IMG/VR virus record: IMGVR_UViG_3300037882_002000
Span: 1 to 59,960 of that record
Strand: one strand, 5' to 3'
From: a virus
DNA: 59,960 nt
Positions within the stretch are counted from its first letter, which is position 1, and the number at the start of each line of letters is the position of its first letter. The notes under the pieces are model-generated. The model saw nothing but the letters and a program-made list of their open reading frames with translations. It did no database searches and was not told the origin of the DNA. The translations under genes were made by a program, and so were the position numbers. Positions 1,145-39,185 of this stretch are shown one piece after another.

Positions 1145-4100
1145 ATGGTAAGCACCAATAATCCCACAGAGGACATGATAAAGGAGCTTATTGCTTCTGG
1201 TGACCTCGATCCCGCTACCCTGGAGCAGGACTCACCATTCACTGACCTCAATACCTCCCCTGATATTGTAAGTTATCGGATTCCTTCCGAGACTGCGCGA
1301 AAGATCGCGCCTACGCAGGACACCGCGCCTGCCTTCCCCCCTTCTTTTGAACTCGCTGACAACTCCCTCAGGCAGCAAACCGCTGTTTCTCCGTCGGTTA
1401 CTCCTCCTGTTGAAGATGAATACGGGAAAGTCAGAAGACTTGTCAAAGCCCGTTACGGCGTTGATCTTCCTGATGCTCCCGCCGCAACCGAGCAACCACC
1501 CGAAGAGCCGGAAGTTGATTACGAGGTGGTCCGTCAGCAGGCGAAACAAAAGTACGGTATTGATCTCCCACCACTTTCCAGCAGCTTCACCTCCAGCGCG
1601 AAGGCTTTTGGCCGTAGCGTGGTAGAGAGTAGTGCTGAATCACTTCTGAAGGGTCCAGCTGAGGTTGGTACGTTTGTAGCGAACTCAGGTGATATAAACA
1701 CAGTCTCTAGGGCGCAGTCGGTTCTGGATGCCTTTGACAAACTCGATGAAGACCGTCTACCAGAGGGCACCGGCGATCTCTCGTTTGAGGCGCAGAACGC
1801 CATCTATTACTACAATAAACTCTTGAATGATCCGTCCGTTCCACTTGAAGACCGTATCAGTAAGAAAGAGCAGCTACGGGAAAAATGGGCGGGGAAACTC
1901 TTATCATCCACCTCATCCGTAGAAGGCGCGGCGGAGAGGCTACAAGAAAATCCCTTGATGCAGGCTGGTGAGCGAGTTGATGAGTGGAAAGAAAGCTCCA
2001 TGCCGATGACGGAGGAGGAACAGGGTAGAACTTCCAGTAAACTCGCTGGCGCTATCGGTTCAGCAGTTCCAATGTTGGCGACTGGAGTTGCAGGGAGCGC
2101 CACGCGCATTCTTGGAAAATCCGCGATTACTCGCGGTGCTGGTAGCCTTCTTCAGAAATCCATGGTGCCGCAAGGTATGGTGAGTCAGGCTTCTATCGGG
2201 TATGATGACGCTATAGAATCTGGCGCGAGTCCATCCCAGGCGCTTACTTCTTCCGGTGCAAACTTCCTTATCGGTGCCAGTGAAGGTGTCCCTATTGGTA
2301 GAGGTATCGAGCGCGGGCTTGACGCAGCGAAGGATTACTTCCGTATGGCACGCAGTGCAGGCTTGAGCGTTGAAGAATCTCTTCCTGGTGCGATTAGTTA
2401 TTACGGAAAAGCAATAGCCTTACAGGCCGCCGAGGAAGGCGCGCAGGAAGGTGGTAGCCAGGCTGCTTCAAATTATGTGGCTTCAGATATCGCCGGGTAC
2501 GATCCAGATAGGAATATACTGGAAGGCACCGGTGAGGGCGCGGCTACTGGCGGCGCGGTAGGCGGTCTATTCGGTGCAGTTGGTGCTTTCGCTGGCCGTA
2601 GAATTCATAAAGCGCGCACCCACGCACAAACTGGGCAGCCACTACCAGGCGAGGAATCCGAAGATCCCGCCACTCCACCGCCACCGCCTGGTGCCCCAGG
2701 ACAATCCCCAGCAGCTTCAGTGGATATCATCCCAGAAGACCAACTAGAGCCTGATGTGCAGGATAAGATTCAGAGCATCGACGATGTGATTAACCCACCG
2801 AGTGAGAAGTACCCCACGAAGGTCACCATCCCGAACCCTGAGGTTAAGTTGCCGCCGGTGACGCAGCAGGAGATCGATGATCTGGTGTTTGACGAGATAC
2901 CGTCGGAAGCACCCACTGCCCCTGAAGAGCCGCAGGTTATACCGCAGATCGACGCTGAAGGTAATACAGTAGGACAATCATACTTTGAGCCGGACACTCA
3001 GTACAGTGAGCCGATTACACCGGAGCGCACCCTCCAGGATATCATAGCCAGCAGGAAGCCAGTCCGTGCTAACACAGCAGAAGATGTGGCGATTGCAGGC
3101 GTGCGCGCGGCCACATCCCCCCTCAACGATCAAGCCGAACCCACTGAAGCACAGAAGCGCGAAGGAAATTATAAAAAGGCGCACATCAACGTCCAGGGTT
3201 TAAACATCACCCTTGAGAATCCGCGCGGCAGCACTCGCTCAGGAATGGATGAGGCTGGTAACCCATGGTCAACCACTATGGAGCACGACTACGGCTACAT
3301 CAAAGGCACCACCGGCAAGGACGGGGAGCACGTTGATACCTATATCGGGCCAGAGCCGCAAGCCACCACCGTGTATGTATTCGACACCAAGAACCCCACT
3401 ACTGGTAAATTCGACGAAGCAAAAGTCTTTATAGGATTCAAGAGCCGTGAAGAAGCTGATGTGGCCTTCGGTAAAGCGTACCCCGGCCAGGCAGCCGAGA
3501 GATTCATGGGTGCTGCTGAGATGGATATGCCACAGTTCAAACGGTGGGTGAAGTCAGGCCGTGCACGTCAACCAATAACTAAGCAGCCAAAACCTACGGC
3601 AGCTGCACCAAATGTAGCTGTAAATGCACCAGTAGGTCAGCAAACTGCACAAGTAACCACCCAAAAGCCCCAAGTAGCTCCACCTTCGTCAACCGCCCCA
3701 GCCATCGAGCAGGGGCAGCAGAAGTCACTTGAAGTGATGAAGCAAGCGGTAGAGCCGCAGACCCCCGGCCCAGTGATCGAGATGAAGCAGAGGAAGCGGC
3801 CAACCGGCAAAGGAAAGCCGAAAGACCTCCTCCGGTTCATTGCTTCCATCGGCGGCATCCAGGATGAACGTGGAGACCTCAGAGACCTCAGGGATGTGTT
3901 TATCCCAGGCCATGGCAAGTTGATCCGCGATAATGGCGTGCAGGCGGACTACGCACGCGAGGCAGCGCAGGAAGCTGGATATGAAGGCGCGGAGGAACTC
4001 AGTACATTCTACGAAGCCCTATATGAAGCCCGGCGTGGTAAGGCCCACTACTCCAGCCGCGATCAAGGTCGCGGTGTCGAGCAGGACGTTACCAAGATGG

Positions 4101-7100
4101 AAGCAGCAAAGTCCAATCCACTCAGAGAGGCCGTTTATCAGCAGGCTGAAAACCTTGGTATTGATGCGGTAGGTAAGTCAGCGGAGGATCTTGCTGTTGA
4201 GATTGCTGAACGCGAATCAATACAGGCTGATGGCGCACATTCAGAAGAAGCCATGGAGGAAATCGCCTCACAGGCGCAGGATTATCTCCATGCCTACTTA
4301 GAGGAAACCGCCACCGAGTACGATAGTATTGAAGTTGCAGAAGAAAGTGATATACCATGGGGTGATGAAAATGGACGTGAAACAGAAACTCGATCTTCAG
4401 ATCAAGAGGAAGGAATTTCTCGAAGCGAAGGCGAAGGACAAGAACCTGACGGAGGAGCAGAAGAAGCACTTCCAGAACGCGATCAAGATACAGGGGTTCG
4501 CAGTAGTGGCGGGGAAGAAAGCGGTGCGGTACGCCAACAGCCAGAAGGCGAAATAGAGCAGACCGCAGCCGGTGAGCAGCGAGTGATCGCAGGTGCATCA
4601 AAGATCACCCAAAAAGAACAAGCCGCCAGAGGCGCAGAGAAGCCGCTGAAAGCGAAAGTAGCCCAGAAGGGTATGCAGGGGGCGACCAACCTCTTTGACC
4701 AGTCTGAGAACCAGGAGCAAGACCTTTTTCGTGAGCCTACGAAAATGGTATCCGATGCAACCACCACGCCTGCAACACCAGCCCCTGTAGAGCCTAGTGT
4801 TTCTGAAAGCCAAACTCCTTACTCCCTGGAAGAGCATAAGCGGAATCGCTCAAAGTTAGACACCGGGGAGTTCTCTGCTGAGGAAGTCCGAGGCCTGTTC
4901 GCTCGTGCGATGGAGGGCCGTGCCGCTATCATGGAGTCAATGAAGAAGCTCACCAAAGAGCAAATCGGAAAAGAGTACGGGGTTCATAATGGTGCGTATG
5001 GCCGTAGCTCAACCAAAGAATGGTTGATGAAACAGGCATTCGACAGGATGCTCTCAGACTTCTACTACGGCGAGTCCTTTATGTGGTCACCACTCACCGA
5101 GACAGTGCAGACTGCTTATGAGCGGCTTATAGCCGCACAAACGGATGCGGATATAGCGGAAGGGGTTAAGAGCCGAGAAGCTGCAACTACACGGGCAAAA
5201 GAGATAGTTGAATCCGTAAAACGTAGCCACACCGACCCCCAGACATTGGGCGAGTATCATGCCTTTATTCGTGAATATGGTATTGGGAAACTAAGTGATG
5301 AGCAGTTGGCGAAGTATGATACCCTTTCCACAAGTGCCTCCCTGGAAGCTAAGAAACAGAAGAAACAGCAGCAGGCGGTGGTAAAAGGTGTTGAGACTCC
5401 AGCCGATATCAGCACCGAAATAATTGAGACCAAGCACACCAAAAAAGGCACAGACCTCTTTGTTGTACGCCTGAGTGATAGAGTTGAGCGCGATGTTTAT
5501 AATACCCTGAATTCCACTGCCAAAAGGCTTGGTGGGTATTACTCTTCATTCCGTGGTGCAGGTGCTACCCCTGGGTTTCAGTTCCCCACAAAGTCTTCTG
5601 CCGAATCCTTTGTCGCCGCCAGTAAAGGCGAAACCGTCACCTCCGAGAAAGGCCAGAAACCAGAAACCCGCGCCGAGAAGCTCCGTGCTACTGGTCAGGC
5701 GATGATTGATCGAGGTGAAGAATCTCTTGGGCGCGACCGCCAACAGAACACCGCCCGCCGCGCAACAATGGCGGCTGGTGCAGAAGCCAACGCAGCTGCC
5801 GAGATTGCTATGGGTAGAACCTTGCAGGCCATCGGGCAGCGAATAGAAGAAGGCACCGCCGGAGTGCTGGAGGATATTTCGGCTAGGACAGAAGTTGAGA
5901 CACTTAATGGCCTGATGCGTCAGGCGATGTACTCTTCAGACCGCTCCAAGACTGGTTTAAACCACGACGAGCGCGAGAAGCTGCGTAACCGACGATTCGA
6001 TGAATCTGACTCGCGGCAGGTGAAATACCCATACCCAAGTTTCCACGTTGATAATATTCCAAGAATCGCCGGTGAACTAGAGAAGAAGGCTGGCTATAAG
6101 CTGCTGGCACAGCACCTGATGAAGCTGCGTAAAGAGGCTCTAGCTAAAAAAGAGAATGACGTGCAGGTGCGCGATCCTAAGTACATCCTTAAGGTCAAGG
6201 AAGCTGCGGAGCAATTTGAACATACGATGGGCTGGGTGGCCGAGCAGGGAGTTGCAGACTATCTGCGCGTCCAGCGTCTGGGTCTCACCAACCTTCCATT
6301 ACTCCGCCAGGCGGTAAGAGAATACGCCAATCTACTCGCGGGCAAACCAAAGGTAGATCCGATAAAAGAGGCTGAGAGAAAACTCGCTGGCGTGAAGTAT
6401 GATGGATACTTTCCTACCCCGCCAGCCCTTGCTGAACGTATGGCCGAGGAACTTGATATAAAGCCGTCACACCGTGTGCTTGAACCTTCAGCAGGTAAAG
6501 GTTCCCTCATCGAAGCTGCTATAGCTGGCGGAGCGCGGGTTGTGAATATCGACGCTTTGGAAGCGGTAGCCGCTCTTCAAGATATACTCCGCCTCAAAGG
6601 ATTTAATGTTGTGGGTAGAGACTTCCTGGAGCACGAAGGCCAGTACGACCGCATTATAATGAACCCGCCTTTTGAGAATGGTCAGGATATAGAGCACGTC
6701 CAGCACGCCTACACCCTTCTTCCTGAGGGCGGTAAGCTGGTTGCGATAATGTCCGAGGGGCCGTTCTTCCGTGGTGATAAAAAAGCCACAAGTTTCAGGG
6801 AGTGGCTGGATACTGTCGGCGGCACATCGGAGAAACTACCGGAGGGATCATTCAAAGATAGTGATCGCTCCACCGGGGTGGCCACGCGGCTGGTGGTGAT
6901 TGAGAAGCCTTCAACAGGCGAGGTGAGGTTCAATAAATCCACCAACGAGAAGATCGACACCACAGGCTTTGTGGCGGACAAGAAAAAGCTCTTCCAGTAC
7001 GATCCCTCCCAGGAGTTTAATGAGCAGCAGGAAGCTCTCATGGAGGAAGTGGAGAGTCTGGCGCAATCGATCTTTGGTAATAAACTCAACCTGCGCTTCC

Positions 7101-10100
7101 TTCGTAAAATGGCGACGATGGATAGTGAAGAGGTATTTGGAGCCTACACCAGGGAGAGGTTCTCCAATGCCCTTGCTCACTTTGCCTCAATTTCCCTATC
7201 GGATCAAAAGGACGGTAATATCTGGAAGACAATGGGGCATGAAGGCTTGCACTTCCTGAGGTGGACGGGTGCTATTCCCGACCATTTATGGCAGGTACTG
7301 GAGCAGAAGGCGAAGTCGGAGTGGATAAAGAATTTCAACATCAAAAAGCGATACGAGAAGCACTTCCGGGATCATGTAAAATCCGACGGGACTAAGCTCA
7401 CCGAGGCTGAAGTCCAGGAGGCTTTAATCGAGGAGGCTATCGCTGAGGCTTTAGGTGAACACGTTAATGGTAACCGTGCCAAAGGTGCGATTGCTATCCT
7501 ATTCGATAAGATAAAGCGGTTCTTTGATGGTGCCCGTAGGTGGTTGAACAAGGAGGGATTCCACACAGCCGATGATATTATAGCCAAAATAGGGCGCGGT
7601 GAATTCAAACAGGATGGCGGTGTCTCTGCGGTGGTAACGACTGAAGGTGATGAAGACTCCGCAAGTTTCCAGGCGGCGTATCATGGCTCTCCGTACAAAT
7701 TTGATAAATTCACCCTTGATCACATAGGTGAGGGAGAGGGCGCACAGGCTTACGGCTGGGGGCTGTACTTCGCAGGAAACAAAGAAGTTGCGGAATTCTA
7801 CAGGAGTAAGCTCGTTAAGGGATTTTATCCAACTATCAGTGAGCTAGAATCCTGGTTCAAACCTGGTCGCGTGATCAAGGGTATGGGTGGCTACGATAAG
7901 GTGATCTCTTTCAATAAAGTTGGGAAGGATGACTGGTCTGTTACGGTGATAAGAAGCGACAAGGATGGTAATCCCAGTAAGTTTGAGAAAGAGCGGACTC
8001 ATCACACCGTTCCGTTGGATGCCGACCTTGACGCATTTTTGGGAGGGAATCGTAAGCCCCGTGGAGAATTGTACAAGGTTGATATACCCGATGATAGCGA
8101 GCTCCTTCTTTGGGATAAGCCACTCAGTGAGCAGTCGGAAGCAGTAAAGGCAGCACTAGAAGCGGCTTCTGATCCCGTTGTGTCTGCGCGCATGAGTAAA
8201 ACACTGGGTAAGCCAGTTTACGCGATAGGAAGTGGGTATTTCGATCTCAACACAAAAGCCCGCAATTTTTACGATGAACTCTCACTTGATATGCACACCA
8301 AGCGAACGATGTCCTGGGGTGAGGAGGTGAAAGTTAAAAATGACAAGGCGGTTTCAGAGTTTCTGAATTCTCACGGCATCAAAGGCATTAAGTATCTTGA
8401 TGGTGCCAGCCGCACTAAAGGCGAAGGCCACCACAATTATGTAATCTTTGACGATGCTGCAATAAAGATCCTAGATACACACTCCAACGCCCAGGACTCC
8501 GGGGTGATGTTCCAGCGCGGCGGTGGTAAACTCACTCCGCAGGAGCAGAGGAAGAAGAAATACAGCGAAACAATCAGTGACAAGCGGCAGGAAAGCGCGA
8601 TAGACAACTCGTTCTCTTATCCTGACGAGAATATCATAGAGACTCTCTTCGACGAGAATAAGTCCATCTTTGACCCAGCTACATTCACCGGCGCGGTAAA
8701 GGGGAGTTTTTCTAACTTTAAGCGTAAGCTCCAGGAGCGGATGCAGGGCTTTAAGGATATCCAGACCGCGATTGAGAAGACTATCGGAGAGAAACTTCCT
8801 GAATCTGAGAATGTCTACCTCATTGAAGAACTCTACAGCAGCCGGGTTGGTGGCAAGTTTGATGTACTCGAACACAAAGTGAAAGAGCCTATCACAAAGC
8901 TCCTGGCGGATATTCAGTCAAAGATCAAAGACAAAGTAACGGACGGCAACGCTATCGACCAGGTGGAAGCCTTTATGATGGCACTGCACGCGCCAGAGCG
9001 GAACGCGCACATAGCCGAGAAGAACCCTAAATTTAAGGATGGCGGCGGCTCCGGTATAACCGACGCTGAAGCAGCCGCGATCATCGAAAAGGCAAAGGAG
9101 CAACCGTACTTTGAGCAGATGAAGGAAGCGGCGGCGATGGTGCGTAAGATGCTCGATCAATCTCATGAGTTAAGGTATAGCTCCGGGTTGATCTCAAAGG
9201 AATCCTACTTTGAAATAAAGGATATGTATAAGAACTACTTCCCGCTACGCGGCTTCCAGGAGGTTATTGGCAAGGACGACAACGACACCGGGCAGAGGCG
9301 CGGCAAGGGGTACGATGTACGAGGCGCGGAATACCGGCAGGCTTTCGGACGAAAGTCGCGTGCAGCGAACATCCTCACACACTCTTTCGCCATCGCTGAA
9401 GAAGTGATTATCCGCAGCGAGAAGAACCGGGTGGCCAACACTCTCCTCAACCTCGTGCTGAAGTACAAGAATCCCGATGTGTGGGAGGTGAACGAAATGG
9501 AGATGAAGCCGGTGGTGAACGCTGAAACCGGCCTCGTGGAATACCGCCCACAGATGGTGAACGACAAGCACCGCCCAGAAGATACCGTGCTCTATGCGAA
9601 GCGGAAGGGGAAAGCCTACCGTATTCACCTTAAGGATCATCGCCTGGGTAAGGCCATCCGCAACATGGATATGGACGACTCCGGTGCATTTATCAACATG
9701 ATGGGTATTGGAAGCCGATGGATCGCTTCAACCAATACCAGATATAACCCAGCTTTTGTGGTAACGAACGCGCAGCGTGACCTTATCGCCGCGTCGATCA
9801 ACCTTCAGCAATATGATATCCCTGGTCTTTCGACTAAGGTGCTAAAGACTTATCTCAAGGCGGCAGCTGGCGTGTATGGTGGCTTGCATGGTAAGGAAGC
9901 CACATACTGGCAGAAGATGCACCAGGAGTTCATTCTGGCTGGTGGTAAGGTGGCATTCAACGATATGGCAAGTATCCGGGACAGACAGAAGAAGCTCTTG
10001 AAAGAGATGAAACTACTCCAGGGTGGTGGCGTTAATAACACCCGTCGTGGATTCCGCGCTTTGATCAACTTAGTCGGTGATGCGAATGATACCGTGGAGA

Positions 10101-34521: not shown

Positions 34522-35145
34522 ATGAGTGAAACGCCAGAGAAATCAACCCTTCCAGTAACTATGCCACCCAGAGTCAATCTCTCTGAGAGTCCTCCTATTG
34601 GAGTCCAGATGGAGAGGGTGGAAATATGGCGAAACCGGCAGATGATGCGGCTTCAAGCATGGAACGGGGTACTTGATTACCACGCGGAGATGTCAACTAT
34701 CGATCCAGATAGATACTCCCCGCGCGAAATAATTGGTTTGATGCGGGATTCCTCAGAGTTTCAAGCTGACTTATCGACCGGTAAGATACCACTGGTGCTG
34801 AACGCGAAGGGTAGAGCGGACGAAGAGCCTGGTATGGATTACGCTGAGACAGAAGCGGAAGGTGATAAGGTATTCGATGCCATATTCCAGGAAGTCACCG
34901 CAGGTGCGCCTGAGCAAGTTAAGGGGGTAACTTCCCGTGAATACGTCCCTAGCGCCAGAAAACGACCTCTTCAGGAGCCGCTACAAGCGAAAGTCAGGGG
35001 CAGGCCAAGGCGCAGTACCCCCCCTGAATCAACGGATAACCAAGTAACACCGGAACAACAGGTGGGGAAAGATTTGAGTGGAAGTCCAGCAGGTCAGAAG
35101 CGAACAGTCAAGGTACGGCGAGTGGTTAAACCTTCCGCTACGTGA
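34522..35145 (+). CDS. small terminase subunit candidate (207 aa)
   Basis: First gene of the late operon, immediately upstream of and overlapping the large terminase. It has a basic C-terminus. The call is positional only. Confidence 0.35.
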   Translation: MSETPEKSTLPVTMPPRVNLSESPPIGVQMERVEIWRNRQMMRLQAWNGVLDYHAEMSTIDPDRYSPREIIGLMRDSSEFQADLSTGKIPLVLNAKGRADEEPGMDYAETEAEGDKVFDAIFQEVTAGAPEQVKGVTSREYVPSARKRPLQEPLQAKVRGRPRRSTPPESTDNQVTPEQQVGKDLSGSPAGQKRTVKVRRVVKPSAT

Positions 35146-36694
35146 AGTCCTTAAATTCTACGATAAAATAGAAGCCATACCGAACGAGGGTATACGCCGG
35201 AACAACCGGCGCAGGCTTATACTGAATGATGTGTTCTACCTTTTGGTCAGAGTATGTGGCCGTAAGGATATGATCCACCCCTGGCTTTACGACAGGTGCC
35301 GGGAAGTGCAGAAGAGTCCAGACGGGCACTTAGATCTTTGGGCAAGAGATTCATATAAATCCACAATCATTACTTTCGGGATGACGATCCAGGATGTTCT
35401 CAGTGATCCAGAGACCACTATCCTGCTGTTCAGCCACACCAAGGATATCGCGCAGACATTCTTGAAGCAGATAATGAACGAACTCGACAGCAACGAGGAA
35501 CTCAAGAGCCACTTTCCCAACGTCCTATGGCAGAGCGCTAGGGACAGAAATATGCAGAAGCGGAAGATTAAGTGGTCTGAGAAAGACGGGCTGGTAGTCA
35601 GAAGACTCTCCAACCCACGAGAACCAACTATATTCGCCTCAGGCTTGGTGGATGGTATGCCAACCTCCTTCCACGTTCAGAGACTCGTGTACGATGATAC
35701 AGTGACCCCGGCTTCCGTCAGTACACCAGAGCAGATAAAGAAAACCACCTCGATGTTGGAGCTTTCAGATAACCTGGGTTCCGGCGCACGAACGATAAAG
35801 AGAATGATTGGTACTCGGTATCACCTATTCGATACCTACCACGATGTTATAGAGCGTGGATTGTTTAAGGTACGCTGCTACCCGGCTACGAGTGACGGCA
35901 GTGATGACTGCTCTAAGTCCGTGCTTCTCCCCCCGGAAGTGCTGGCAAAGAAGAAGATCACCCAAGGCCACAACTTCTACGCGCAGATGCTTCTCAACCC
36001 GCGCGCCGACTCTATAGCGGGCTTTGATGCAAAGAACCTGAGATACTGGCCAGCCGTACACTTCAAGAACCTGAACCGCATTATCCTGGTTGACCCTTCC
36101 TCCGGTAAGCACCGTGAGCAGAACAAGGGTGACTTCACCGCGATGTGGTGCATGGGTAAGGGTGCCGACGAGAAGAAGTACGGCATCAAACTGATACGGG
36201 ACAGGCTAACCGGTCCGCAAAGGATCGAGGCGCTGTTCCAGATGGTTGCCGATTACCGCGTGCGCCTGGTGTTCTATGAAGAAACCGGCTCCTATGCTGA
36301 TATCGAGAATATCAGGCTTGAACAGAATAGACGCAACTTCCGCTTTGACCTGATACCCATCGGTGTGAAGGGCGTGAAGAAGAAAGAGCGTATCCTGCGA
36401 TTACAGTCAGGGTTCGCCAGCGGAGATATCTACCTGCCGGAGCGCGACATCTACATAAACCAAGAGGGCGTGGCTGTAGACGTGATCAAGCAGTTTGTGC
36501 AGGACGAATACATCCCTTACCCGGTTGTGTCGCATGACGATGCTCTGGATGCTTTGGCGATGATGGAGCACGAAGATGTGGTGCGTAGGTGGATTACGCC
36601 ACTATCGGAGCACATCGATGAGAACCCGATGCTGGTGAAGGCCAGAAGAGAGGCGCGAAGGGCGCGAAGGCCAGACTCCTGGATGGCTGGGTGA
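35078..36694 (+). CDS. terminase large subunit
   Basis: 538 aa. HLDLWARDSYKSTIITF and LVYDD lie in the ATPase half. ILVDPSSGKHREQNKGDFTAMWCMG and SHDDALDAL lie in the RNase-H-like nuclease half. GTG 35078 is the only in-frame start upstream of these motifs. Confidence 0.85.
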   Translation: MEVQQVRSEQSRYGEWLNLPLREVLKFYDKIEAIPNEGIRRNNRRRLILNDVFYLLVRVCGRKDMIHPWLYDRCREVQKSPDGHLDLWARDSYKSTIITFGMTIQDVLSDPETTILLFSHTKDIAQTFLKQIMNELDSNEELKSHFPNVLWQSARDRNMQKRKIKWSEKDGLVVRRLSNPREPTIFASGLVDGMPTSFHVQRLVYDDTVTPASVSTPEQIKKTTSMLELSDNLGSGARTIKRMIGTRYHLFDTYHDVIERGLFKVRCYPATSDGSDDCSKSVLLPPEVLAKKKITQGHNFYAQMLLNPRADSIAGFDAKNLRYWPAVHFKNLNRIILVDPSSGKHREQNKGDFTAMWCMGKGADEKKYGIKLIRDRLTGPQRIEALFQMVADYRVRLVFYEETGSYADIENIRLEQNRRNFRFDLIPIGVKGVKKKERILRLQSGFASGDIYLPERDIYINQEGVAVDVIKQFVQDEYIPYPVVSHDDALDALAMMEHEDVVRRWITPLSEHIDENPMLVKARREARRARRPDSWMAG

Positions 36695-36695
36695 G

Positions 36696-36890
36696 ATGGC
36701 AATCAAGATTGGCGATATCTGCCAGATCAATCAGAGAGTGATTGGCACGGTAAGCAGTATTATATACTGCGACCATGACATGGTGCGGATGTTGGTGGAA
36801 GTGATCCTCGAATCTGATGAGGTAGCTACTCTGACCGTCACCCTGGGTGAGGACGCTATCAAGAACTGGAATCAACCAACAATTCATTGA
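36696..36890 (+). CDS. hypothetical protein (64 aa)
   Basis: ATG lies 1 nt after the terminase stop. The tRNA begins at the base after its own stop. Confidence 0.55.
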   Translation: MAIKIGDICQINQRVIGTVSSIIYCDHDMVRMLVEVILESDEVATLTVTLGEDAIKNWNQPTIH

Positions 36891-36968
36891 CGCAGGGAAG
36901 AGCAGTCTGGTTCGCTCGTCGGTTTCATAATCCGAAGGTCGTAGGTTCAAATCCTGCCCCTGCAACCA
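36891..36968 (+). tRNA. tRNA-Met (anticodon CAU, 36926..36928), initiator (fMet)-type with atypical A8 and a U31-U39 mismatch; CCA encoded
   Basis: Hand-folded cloverleaf. Acceptor CGCAGGG/CCCTGCA with a C1xA72 mismatch. D-arm GAGC-AGTCTGGTTC-GCTC. Anticodon arm TCGGT-TTCATAA-TCCGA. Variable loop AGGTC. T-arm GTAGG-TTCAAAT-CCTGC. Discriminator A plus CCA. It is almost colinear with E. coli tRNA-fMet as I recall it. Confidence 0.85.
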
Positions 36969-36983
36969 ATATTCAAGGGGCAC

Positions 36984-39185
36984 ATGGAATTAGATAACCT
37001 CAAAGAAGAGAGCTTACTTGAGCTACCCACGGGCGGTGCGATAGTGGAGGCAAACCACGACCGTTATCGCCGTGATGCTATCGGACACGAGAAGTACGCC
37101 CAACTTGCTACACTGGCCACCAACTTCCTGGAAGGTACTCAGTACACCCAAGAAGAGATCACGGCATTCAAAGACCAAGGCCGCCCATATCTGACCAAGA
37201 ATAAGATCGCTCCTCTCCACCGCCTGATGATGGGCTTCATGGAAGAGAATAACTACGAGATCAAGTTCCTGCCCGGTAATGATGGCACCGGCAGCCAAGA
37301 GATTGCAGACACGCTCTCCGCCACCCACAAGCAGGTAGAGGAAAGCAACGACGCTGAATGGAAGGACACCGATGTATTCCAGGATGGTATTACCACCGGG
37401 CGCGGCTTCCTCGATCAGCGTATCAGCTTTGTCTACAACAAGATGGGTGATATCAAGCAGTCAGTCCTTAATCCCCTTGAGGTGCTGATCGACGCAGATG
37501 CCACCACCTACGACCCCAACGATGAAGACGGCGGCTGGGACCACTGGGAATATAACCGATGGATGTCAATTTCCGATATCTACACCCTGTATGGCCCGAT
37601 GGCCTTCAGGAAGATCGGGGATATGAAGCGCAGTATCCCGCTGCTCGATGGCGATTACTACGGCACTAGCCGTGCTTATGACTCGCCAGGCGCAGGCTTC
37701 GGGCTTGATCAGGATATGAGACTTGATTACGAGTGGACCAACTTCGTTACCACCCAGTATTCGGACTTCTTCCTCCAGAACCGCAGGTTGATTCGCGTTA
37801 TCGACTGCCAGCACAAGGTTTTGAAGCGATGCAACTACTTCGTGGACACGGAGACCGGCCAGCAGAAGGTAATCCCTGAGGGCTGGGATGAGGCAAAGAT
37901 CCGTAGGGTGATGCAGTTTGTCACCGAGCGGCAGTTGCCCGTGTCTATTGAGACCGGAATCAAGAAGCGGATACGCTGGACTATCACCGCAGCAGACCGT
38001 TTGATCTGGGATGAGTGGTCACCATACGACCAGTACACGATCATTCCATACTTCCCGTATTTCCGTCGTGGAGCTACCAGGGGTATGATCGACGACCTGA
38101 TCGACCCACAGAGAGAGCTTAACAAGCGAAGTTCTGCCCTCCTGCATATCGTGATGGCCACCGCAAATTCTGGATGGATGTGGGAAGAAGGCGCTCTTTC
38201 TGAGGATATGGAGACCGCGCTTGAAGAAGAGGGTGCCCGCCCAGGTATCCACCTCAAGTATCGGATGGGCTACAATGCACCGGCGAGGATCGAGCCAGCC
38301 GCGCTACCGAGTAACGTGAAGATACTGGAAGACCAAGCCACCGTTGATCTGAGGGAAATCTCCGGTATCAATGAAAGCTCCCTTGGTCAGAAAGACCCAA
38401 CAGCGAATTCAGGCCGCGCTGTACTTGCCAAGCAGAAGCAGGCAGTAATCGGCGCGCAGACATACTTTAAGAATTTTAGCCGCTATCGTCAGATTAAAGG
38501 CAAGAACCAGCTGAGTCTGATTCAGAACTTCTACACCGAGCCAAGGTTGATACGCAGCCGCGCGGCTGAGAAGGGCGATCAGATGCTCTGGATCAACAGC
38601 CGTGACGCAGCCGGTGAGATAGTGAACAACGTGGCCTTTGGCCGTTACAACGTGACCGTAGCTGAGGCTCCAGTCTCCGCTTCCTTTATGCAAGGTCAAT
38701 TCCAGGAGATGTTGGAGCTTATCGAGAAGGGCGCGCCTATACCTTGGGATATCGCAATCAAGCTGTCCTCCGCTCCTAACAAGGAAGAGATCCTCCAGCG
38801 GATGCGTGAAGAGCGCCAGCTGCAAGAAGAGTCCATCAGGATGCAAACCCTCGCGGGTAAAGCCTCGATGGGGATACCACCGGATATGCCAACACCACCG
38901 ATTACGGTTGATGGTGGTCCGGCGGTGATACAGGCGCAGCCGCCGGGTGCCGGTATTCCGCCAACTGCCATACCTGGTGGTCCAGCGGCTGCACCTATGT
39001 TACCGCCTCCAATGCGGGGTGGTGGAAGCCCGATACCTGCTGGCCCAGACGCAGGCGCAATACCACAAGGTGGAGGCGATATAGCTTCCCTGGTGGCTAT
39101 GCTTGGCCAACTGAACCAGACACTGCAACGCCCGCGCGACCTTAAGAGAGACCCAGCAACCCAAGCTATAATCGGCTTTCAATAG
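36984..39185 (+). CDS. portal protein (733 aa) with a Pro/Gly-rich C-terminal tail
   Basis: Its size, its position after the large terminase and the acidic stretches are typical of podovirus portals. Confidence 0.8.
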   Translation: MELDNLKEESLLELPTGGAIVEANHDRYRRDAIGHEKYAQLATLATNFLEGTQYTQEEITAFKDQGRPYLTKNKIAPLHRLMMGFMEENNYEIKFLPGNDGTGSQEIADTLSATHKQVEESNDAEWKDTDVFQDGITTGRGFLDQRISFVYNKMGDIKQSVLNPLEVLIDADATTYDPNDEDGGWDHWEYNRWMSISDIYTLYGPMAFRKIGDMKRSIPLLDGDYYGTSRAYDSPGAGFGLDQDMRLDYEWTNFVTTQYSDFFLQNRRLIRVIDCQHKVLKRCNYFVDTETGQQKVIPEGWDEAKIRRVMQFVTERQLPVSIETGIKKRIRWTITAADRLIWDEWSPYDQYTIIPYFPYFRRGATRGMIDDLIDPQRELNKRSSALLHIVMATANSGWMWEEGALSEDMETALEEEGARPGIHLKYRMGYNAPARIEPAALPSNVKILEDQATVDLREISGINESSLGQKDPTANSGRAVLAKQKQAVIGAQTYFKNFSRYRQIKGKNQLSLIQNFYTEPRLIRSRAAEKGDQMLWINSRDAAGEIVNNVAFGRYNVTVAEAPVSASFMQGQFQEMLELIEKGAPIPWDIAIKLSSAPNKEEILQRMREERQLQEESIRMQTLAGKASMGIPPDMPTPPITVDGGPAVIQAQPPGAGIPPTAIPGGPAAAPMLPPPMRGGGSPIPAGPDAGAIPQGGGDIASLVAMLGQLNQTLQRPRDLKRDPATQAIIGFQ

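Follow-up and report, generated by a model that had tools for sequence, protein, structure and literature searches.

The three consecutive G:C pairs that initiator transfer RNAs (tRNAs) have in their anticodon stem are a textbook-universal feature, and the locus described here raises the question of what an initiator-type tRNA in which the third pair has become a U-U opposition does for the phage that encodes it. The gene lies at positions 36891-36968 of IMG/VR record IMGVR_UViG_3300037882_002000, a complete metagenomic contig of 59,960 bp from an uncultured tailed phage, which was analyzed over its whole length and is hereafter called the window. A first-pass annotation, made from the letters alone, had proposed an initiator-type tRNA-Met with a remodelled anticodon stem and had suggested resistance to anticodon nucleases as one possible purpose. 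Phage-encoded initiator tRNAs are already known; what is new is a recurrent class of them with U31 opposite U39. To judge from the features set out below, the window tRNA is probably functional, working like tRNA-fMet, and made from a late operon. The gene, its fold, its identity elements, their conservation and covariation, and its operon position are observed directly.

The gene and the two of its parts that matter most here are located as follows:

36891-36968, + strand: tRNA-Met(CAU), initiator-type, 78 nt with encoded CCA (ARAGORN, Rfam RF00005, cloverleaf fold, and identity to metZ)
36891-36897, + strand: 5' strand of the acceptor stem, CGCAGGG, which pairs with 36957-36963 (CCCUGCA)
36919-36935, + strand: anticodon arm (Sprinzl positions 27-43), UCGGU-UUCAUAA-UCCGA (direct reading and ARAGORN brackets)

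ARAGORN predicted exactly one tRNA in the 59,960-bp contig, a tRNA-Met(CAT) at 36891-36968 on the + strand, and the same sequence scored 51.9 bits against Rfam RF00005 (gathering score 29; E = 2.8e-8). Both the minimum-energy structure and the centroid computed by RNAfold were cloverleaves (-25 kcal/mol, z = -2.24), as the first-pass annotation had it.

The determinants of formylation are the absent 1:72 pair together with 2:71, 3:70, and 11:24. In the window tRNA, position 1 forms no Watson-Crick pair (C1xA72), and the acceptor stem continues with G2:C71, C3:G70, A4:U69, and G5:C68. The mismatch, A11:U24, the CAU anticodon (36926-36928), the T loop TTCAAAT, and A73 followed by an encoded CCA had all been listed before and were all found in the sequence; G2:C71 and C3:G70, the other formylation determinants, had been passed over and are present too. 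CAU and the A73 discriminator constitute the identity of MetRS substrates. Neither the Watson-Crick 1:72 pair and Y11:R24 of elongator tRNA-Met nor the G1:C72, C4:G69, C5:G68, and Y11:R24 of tRNA-Ile2 occur, C4:G69 and C5:G68 being E. coli TilS determinants that may not be those of the host.

Alignment to the metZ, metU, and ileX genes of E. coli K-12 placed the window tRNA with the initiator: identity to metZ was 84.6% by alignment and 85.9% by BLAST, compared with 61.3% to metU (elongator Met) and 60.8% to ileX (Ile2). Besides the features already named, E. coli tRNA-fMet (metZ/W/V, metY; 85% identical overall) shares G29:C41, G30:C40, CAUAA within the anticodon loop, and a T arm with U50-G64 and the loop UUCAAAU. 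The tRNA-fMet sequence with which the first-pass annotation had compared the gene agrees with K-12 metZ, and the differences that it drew from it hold, namely the compensatory changes of G4:C69 and C51:G63 to A:U, the replacement of G31:C39 by U-U and of C32 by U (G31U, C39U, C32U), and A8 (36898) in place of U8. The alignment added G9A and a longer D loop with C at the usual A21. The phage gene differs further in being phage-borne, single-copy, and placed inside a protein-coding late operon. Within the anticodon arm, G29:C41 and G30:C40 are kept, U31 (36923) stands opposite U39 (36931), and position 32 is U (36924). The proposal that this is a real tRNA bearing the identity elements of a bacterial initiator is upheld by the metZ identity together with C1xA72, A11:U24, and A73; because 31:39 is U-U, we file it as an initiator-like variant that is non-canonical.

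The remodelled arm is shared with relatives that were reached through the portal protein, by protein database and contig look-ups, and are hence unbiased by the tRNA sequence. (A portal-sequence search of IMG/VR loci with a single query and an exact 28-nt arm search in IMG/VR gave no match.) Loci L001 and L002 (portal 85% identical), L003 (71%), and L007 and L008 (71%) carry a tRNA-Met in the identical slot, and in four syntenic phages the geometry is that of a stop codon, the tRNA at the next base, a spacer of 13-15 nt, and the portal ATG. The 13-nt core of the anticodon arm, GGTTTCATAATCC, is identical in L001, L003, and L007. Across the four distinct syntenic tRNAs the invariant core GGUUUCAUAAUCC comprises G29, G30, U31, U32, the loop, U39, C40, and C41, an invariance that, for three positions over just four sequences, lies below statistical significance. 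The 1:72 position is always non-Watson-Crick (C-A or U-U), A11:U24 is always kept, and each of these tRNAs scores 51-56 bits in Rfam. Ten stem pairs vary among them (3:70, 4:69, 6:67, 7:66, 13:22, 27:43, 28:42, 49:65, 50:64, and 51:63), nearly all in a compensatory manner. This covariation of the stems excludes a decaying pseudogene, and the compensatory changes, here and in the wider class described below, confirm the earlier suggestion that the fold is under selection. The 31/32/39 remodelling, conserved as it appears in the syntenic relatives, is no private mutation.

The slot is confined to a narrow clade. In L004 (portal 64% identical) the small open reading frame (ORF) that precedes the tRNA in the window is followed by the portal gene after a gap of 8 nt, with no tRNA in between, from which we take the tRNA to be a precise insertion; neither L004 nor L005 (portal 53%) has a tRNA within 4 kb, and an initiator-like tRNA stands near the portal gene in only 1 of 80 IMG/VR loci whose portals are 33-43% identical, which makes the slot specific to this clade. 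The single case, L252 (portal ~38% identical), has its tRNA at 998-1073, ~2.4 kb upstream of the portal gene, with C1xA72, A11:U24, U29:A41, G30:C40, and G31:C39; it departs from the three G:C pairs independently, in what is broadly the same group of phages. L006 (portal 75% identical) has neither the small ORF nor a tRNA between terminase and portal; an elongator-like tRNA-Met(CAU) lies ~3.7 kb upstream (L006 233-307) and has U1:A72, C11:G24, and a G27-A43 mismatch atop the anticodon stem. The L003 tRNA (3913-3987) has the T loop UGCAAUU, with G at 55, and a D loop AACAGUA without the GG dinucleotide, changes that may reflect covariation of D-loop/T-loop tertiary contacts.

The arm also recurs far beyond the clade. 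The pattern GGTTTCATAATCCNNAGNNNNNNGGT was searched for in IMG/VR, in metagenome contigs, and in 185,579 genomes, one per species, yielding 15, 67, and 21 matches, respectively. Nineteen of the 21 species-genome matches (set L025-L044) are chance hits inside coding sequence, mostly a Bacteroidota gene, and many of these have the common Bacteroidota coding context CCGGTTTCATAATCCTCAG. The other 2 are true tRNAs, both on contigs of Bacteroidota metagenome-assembled genomes, and one of these (L032) shares synteny with a viral contig of IMG/VR. The scan of the 185,579 species representatives thus found no U31-U39/U32 arm in a bacterial chromosome, in agreement with a bacterial survey in which tRNA-fMet with a 4-bp anticodon stem accounted for 82 of 50,849 (0.2%; Fakih et al. 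2026, Nucleic Acids Research, PMC13092985), and it makes a host initiator with the same bases at 31, 32, and 39, a finding that would have counted against the first interpretation, unlikely.

A 1x72 mismatch combined with A11:U24 was present in 19 of 44 distinct arm-bearing tRNAs, the window tRNA included. We aligned 18 initiator-like arm-bearing tRNAs, in which A11:U24, as a selection criterion, is invariant by construction and not independent evidence. All 342 stem cells of this alignment are paired, 13 of the 19 pairs are changed on both sides, and its covariation score was reached by none of 500 shuffles; G2:C71 is found in 17 members and C3:G70 in 16. Most arm-bearing initiator-like tRNAs are the sole tRNA of their locus. 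The form with U31-U39 and C32 (GGTCTCATAATCC) is represented by 59 IMG/VR matches (L322-L380), compared with 15 for the U32 form, and about half of the 59 have A11:U24 plus, at 1:72, either a mismatch or a weak U1:A72 pair.

In L019 (7135-7208) and L066 (2196-2269), two phage contigs without relation to the window, the U31-U39 initiator-like tRNA is encoded on the same strand as, and directly 3' of, a major head protein gene, at a gap of 20-85 nt, a position that echoes the late-operon position in the window. Elsewhere, L094 (506-11402) holds ~36 tRNA genes in 11 kb, with a U31-U39 initiator-like tRNA beside a second tRNA-Met, and is likely, by its gene content, a jumbo-phage tRNA island. No window protein matched the other U-U loci at E < 1e-6 in tblastn, which leaves both horizontal transfer and convergence possible. 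When positions 31, 32, and 39 were disregarded, most U-U tRNAs were closest in identity to a canonical initiator; we rejected this as proof of convergence, as the orthologous L003 and L007 tRNAs also fail to cluster with that of the window, and the test is too coarse because ~60 nt gives little resolution.

Initiator copies are less unusual in phages than the first-pass annotation, which called them uncommon, had supposed, since initiator-like tRNA-Met queries found matches in 117-223 phage records of GenBank. Among the 120 IMG/VR matches with G29/G30 arms that were listed, at least 27 combine the canonical GGG/CUCAUAA/CCC arm with a 1x72 mismatch and A11:U24, and variants with A:U, C:G, or U-G at 31:39 are also found. 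Of the cultured representatives, Aeromonas phage AP1 has an initiator-like tRNA with a canonical arm, Caulobacter phage CcrSC (phiCbK-like; annotated tRNA-fMet) has U29:A41, G30:C40, and G31:C39, and the KVP40-like vibriophage phi-pp2 and Synechococcus phage S-CRM01 have U31-G39. The tRNA-Met of Escherichia phage phi92 (L234 1498-1576, corresponding to FR775895.2 54244-54322) combines C1-U72 and A11:U24 with only one of the three G:C pairs, G30:C40, the others being A29:U41 and U31-G39. These phage tRNAs (phi92, KVP40-like, S-CRM01, CcrSC, and AP1) share with the window a phage-encoded CAU anticodon, a 1x72 mismatch, and A11:U24, and several are likewise altered at 31:39 or 29:41; they mostly reside in multi-tRNA clusters of large myoviruses and have a wobble pair at 31:39, whereas the window tRNA has no other tRNA beside it in its 60-kb podovirus-like genome, lies between packaging genes, and has a true U-U mismatch. 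Remodelled anticodon arms thus appear as a theme of phage initiator-like tRNAs, of which the U-U non-pair is the extreme form. Among cellular initiators, those of alpha-proteobacteria and some mycoplasmas (au/GC/GC and GC/GC/gu; PMC5389676) likewise depart from GC/GC/GC and keep the middle G30:C40, although they retain a purine:pyrimidine combination (A:U or G-U), in contrast to the pyrimidine-pyrimidine non-pair on a phage carrier described here.

The tRNA lies in the following gene order:

35078-36694, + strand: large terminase subunit (phrog_38, E = 4.6e-43; Terminase_6C, E = 1.7e-4, just under the Pfam cut-off)
36696-36890, + strand: conserved ORF of 64 amino acids, ending in QPTIH (ORF list); its TGA stop abuts tRNA base 1
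36891-36968, + strand: the tRNA
36969-36983, + strand: 15-nt spacer AUAUUCAAGGGGCAC with a Shine-Dalgarno-like AAGGGG for the portal gene (read from the sequence)
36984-39185, + strand: P22-type portal protein (PF16510, E = 2.9e-90; phrog_156, E = 4e-88)

The phrog_38 and PF16510 matches confirm the placement between terminase and portal genes, and the coordinates reproduce the earlier reading that the tRNA starts at the base after a stop codon and ends 15 nt before the portal ATG; the spacer AUAUUCAAGGGGCAC serves the tRNA as its 3' trailer and the portal messenger RNA (mRNA) as its 5' leader. The 64-amino-acid ORF had no Pfam or PHROG match and has homologues in L001, L003, L004, and L007 with the common C-terminal motif QP(T/V)IH. 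Neither a sigma-70-like promoter nor an intrinsic terminator was predicted between 34.1 and 38.5 kb, which makes a transcript shared with the late genes for packaging and head proteins the simplest arrangement and agrees with the proposed embedding in a late operon. L001 (1264-3714) and L002 (1075-3714) have a large-terminase homologue of 816-879 amino acids, compared with 538 in the window, with a faint LAGLIDADG_3 match, which suggests an intein or homing-endonuclease insertion.

The phage itself is distant from cultured isolates. Its portal protein is closest to those of the Pseudomonas KPP25 group, at only 33% identity, and a near-DNA search of GenBank phages with the 3 kb around the tRNA found no close cultured relative, the sole match being tRNA-length. 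The families reported for the window proteome include Dam, ThyX, RecT/exonuclease VIII, a primase-helicase, an alginate lyase, and a lysozyme, and no integrase is among them; a role of the tRNA as an integration site (attP) was rejected on this ground and because the tRNA is complete. An ORF of 3431 amino acids (window 1145-11440, + strand) encodes a polyvalent protein with an InPase domain (amino acids 668-803), a methyltransferase domain (~1766-1887), a weak ART-PolyVal match (2178-2225), and an LPD38 domain (3084-3283), and a DarB-like antirestriction PHROG is among the proteome-wide matches. The product of this ORF is probably a virion-delivered counter-defence protein, and from its predicted gene content the phage looks virulent and equipped for counter-defence. 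As to the host, the AGUCUGG D-loop and the alginate lyase give a weak hint of a Pseudomonas-like gammaproteobacterium.

If the tRNA acts as we propose, it would be transcribed within the late transcript of terminase, small ORF, and portal; RNase P would cut at base 1, right behind the upstream stop codon, and host 3' processing would trim the A/U-rich trailer to the encoded CCA. Host MetRS would charge it through the CAU anticodon and A73, and host formyltransferase would recognize the missing Watson-Crick 1:72 pair, G2:C71, C3:G70, and A11:U24. IF2 would then deliver it to the 30S P site, where 16S A1339 and G1338 would read the retained G30:C40 and G29:C41, and the outcome would be extra or replacement initiator capacity during bulk synthesis of structural proteins. 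For P-site selection, 16S A1339 and G1338 must make A-minor contacts with 30:40 and 29:41, and A790 touches the backbone at 38 (PMC11497404); E. coli is viable with a third pair of AU, CG, or GU, G30 being essential (PMC5389676). The U31-U39 and U32 changes therefore sit at the one G:C pair without direct ribosome contact. We take the tRNA as a working initiator because all elements with a known direct reader are kept and the altered pair has none.

Several observations weigh on the other side. The third of the consecutive G:C pairs 29:41, 30:40, and 31:39 is lacking, and we know of no test of a U-U at 31:39 in an initiator. The near-universal U8, which forms the tertiary pair U8-A14, is replaced by A8 in the window and L001 but retained in L003 and L007, a change that may weaken the tertiary core. 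The constancy of the arm across the wider class is circular, the arm having been fixed by the search pattern, and the states found at 31:39 in phages (A:U, C:G, U-G, and U-U) look like relaxed constraint and not like one selected solution. Finally, in window ORFs of at least 100 amino acids, 27.7% of Ile codons are AUA (16 per 1000 codons), a high usage for a genome of 51% G+C, which leaves a role in elongation possible, and the elongator-like CAU tRNA of the sister phage L006 keeps a decoding role alive.

Why the arm changed is a separate question. The explanation that survives best, while falling short of likely, is that the tRNA is a plain initiator supplement whose third G:C pair has drifted neutrally: it is needed only for minutes, and the gain would be more initiator late in infection. 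Mutants of the third pair sustain growth of E. coli (PMC5389676), phage tRNAs are generally less stable than those of the host (PMC12482277), the spread of states at 31:39 among phage initiator-like tRNAs extends to G-U, and the tRNA recurs in late head operons (window, L019, and L066). Drift would not readily account for the retention of a U-U non-pair, and not merely a weaker pair, across phages with portal identities as low as 71%, nor for the recurrence of the identical three-base state in unrelated phages, and bacteria purge initiators with 4-bp stems down to the 0.2% given above (PMC13092985).

The tRNA may instead be a nuclease-resistant spare initiator, an idea that we hold only tentatively. 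Here, U31-U39 and U32 would be adaptive, destroying the A38^C39 site or the stem context required by VapC-type PIN toxins, or by another nuclease of the initiator arm, so that initiation could persist after the host pool has been cleaved. The enteric VapC enzymes from Shigella and Salmonella cleave the bond joining A38 to C39 (PMC4105405), and VapCs read both the sequence and the structure of the anticodon stem-loop (PMC7180214). Position 39, on the 3' side of this cut, is an unpaired U in the window, whereas all bacterial initiators matched have C39 paired to G31; in phi92, with the anticodon loop UUCAUAU (U32, U38) and G39, both bases flanking the cut differ from the E. coli initiator. The arm, moreover, is invariant in the four syntenic phages while adjacent pairs covary, U-U arms turn up repeatedly among unrelated phages (IMG/VR matches: 15 for U32, 59 for C32), and they are essentially absent from bacterial chromosomes by both our species scan and PMC13092985. 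The phage also encodes the 3431-amino-acid DarB-like polyvalent protein, an investment in counter-defence.

The general evasion hypothesis has been published for elongator tRNAs (van den Berg et al. 2023, eLife, PMC10264068); there, as may hold for the window tRNA, the phage copy of a tRNA attacked by a nuclease is altered where the enzyme is known to cut. No initiator case is described there, whereas the window tRNA appears to be initiator-type, and phages are said in that work generally to avoid encoding tRNA-fMet. Against nuclease resistance stand the fact that 31:39 is under less constraint than the other two G:C pairs and the statistical limit on invariance noted above for four syntenic sequences, and a relaxed constraint would account for the change nearly equally well, because E. 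coli tolerates loss of the third G:C pair (PMC5389676). Stated for the class as a whole, it is conceivable, though doubtful on present sequences, that phages have repeatedly evolved or exchanged an initiator with an open U-U at 31:39, often with U32, in which the needs of MetRS, Fmt, IF2, and the P site are kept, as a counter-defence against VapC/PIN toxins that cut at A38^C39.

A re-tuning of start-codon selection is unlikely. The open bottom pair and a possible U32-A38 could alter the dynamics of the loop, so that the tRNA escapes IF3 proofreading or accepts non-AUG codons such as AUA, favouring phage mRNAs. Small changes in the anticodon stem do shift start-codon discrimination (PMC11497404), and 4-bp-stem "superwobble" tRNAs, in which the bottom pair of the anticodon stem (31:39) is open as it is here, read near-cognate codons, a 4-bp tRNA-fMet being predicted to read AUA (PMC13092985). 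That survey, however, is bacterial and without phages, and superwobble was shown for A-site elongators (tRNA-Trp) and not for P-site initiators, to which type the phage-borne window tRNA belongs. The late genes with a clear Shine-Dalgarno sequence are overwhelmingly ATG-started, and no AUA or other unusual starts were identified.

Still less probable is an elongation tRNA, either an elongator Met/AUA reader or a lysidine-bearing tRNA-Ile2 compensating for codon usage. Many phage genes called tRNA-Met are in fact Ile2, AUA is frequent in the window, and in the sister phage L006 the CAU tRNA is elongator-like, all of which would suit this role. The identity of 61% to E. coli elongator Met and Ile2, compared with 85% to the initiator, speaks against it, as do the 1x72 mismatch (C-A or U-U) conserved in all syntenic copies, A11:U24 rather than Y11:R24, the retained G29 and G30, and the presence of G2:C71 and C3:G70. 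Pairs 4:69 and 5:68 are A:U and G:C and not the C4:G69 and C5:G68 that E. coli TilS reportedly uses, a result credited to Ikeuchi and colleagues in 2005, and ATG codons, at 17.8 per 1000, are infrequent. The least credible proposal is RNA-processing punctuation, in which an RNase P cut would separate the terminase/small-ORF mRNA from the portal/structural mRNA, with decoding secondary or absent: the conserved geometry of stop codon, tRNA, 13-15 nt spacer, and ATG in four phages, the lack of a predicted promoter or terminator nearby, and the L004 junction, which works without a tRNA across its 8-nt gap, are counted in its favour, but processing alone would not conserve CAU, A73, the 1x72 mismatch, G2:C71, C3:G70, A11:U24, and G29/G30, and the same tRNA type occupies other genomic positions in unrelated phages.

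If the change at 31:39 is neutral, the window encodes an ordinary phage tRNA with a tolerated mismatch. Either way, recurrent phage initiators with U-U at 31:39 amount to a natural experiment on the requirements of the ribosome and IF3, and they bear on whether initiator cleavage by VapC-type toxins is an anti-phage immunity that phages counter, extending the nuclease-evasion idea to the very tRNA species that its authors said phages avoid. Should the counter-defence reading be true, the class would provide the first initiator tRNA with an anti-defence role, along with a naturally occurring exception to the "universal" rule of three G:C pairs.

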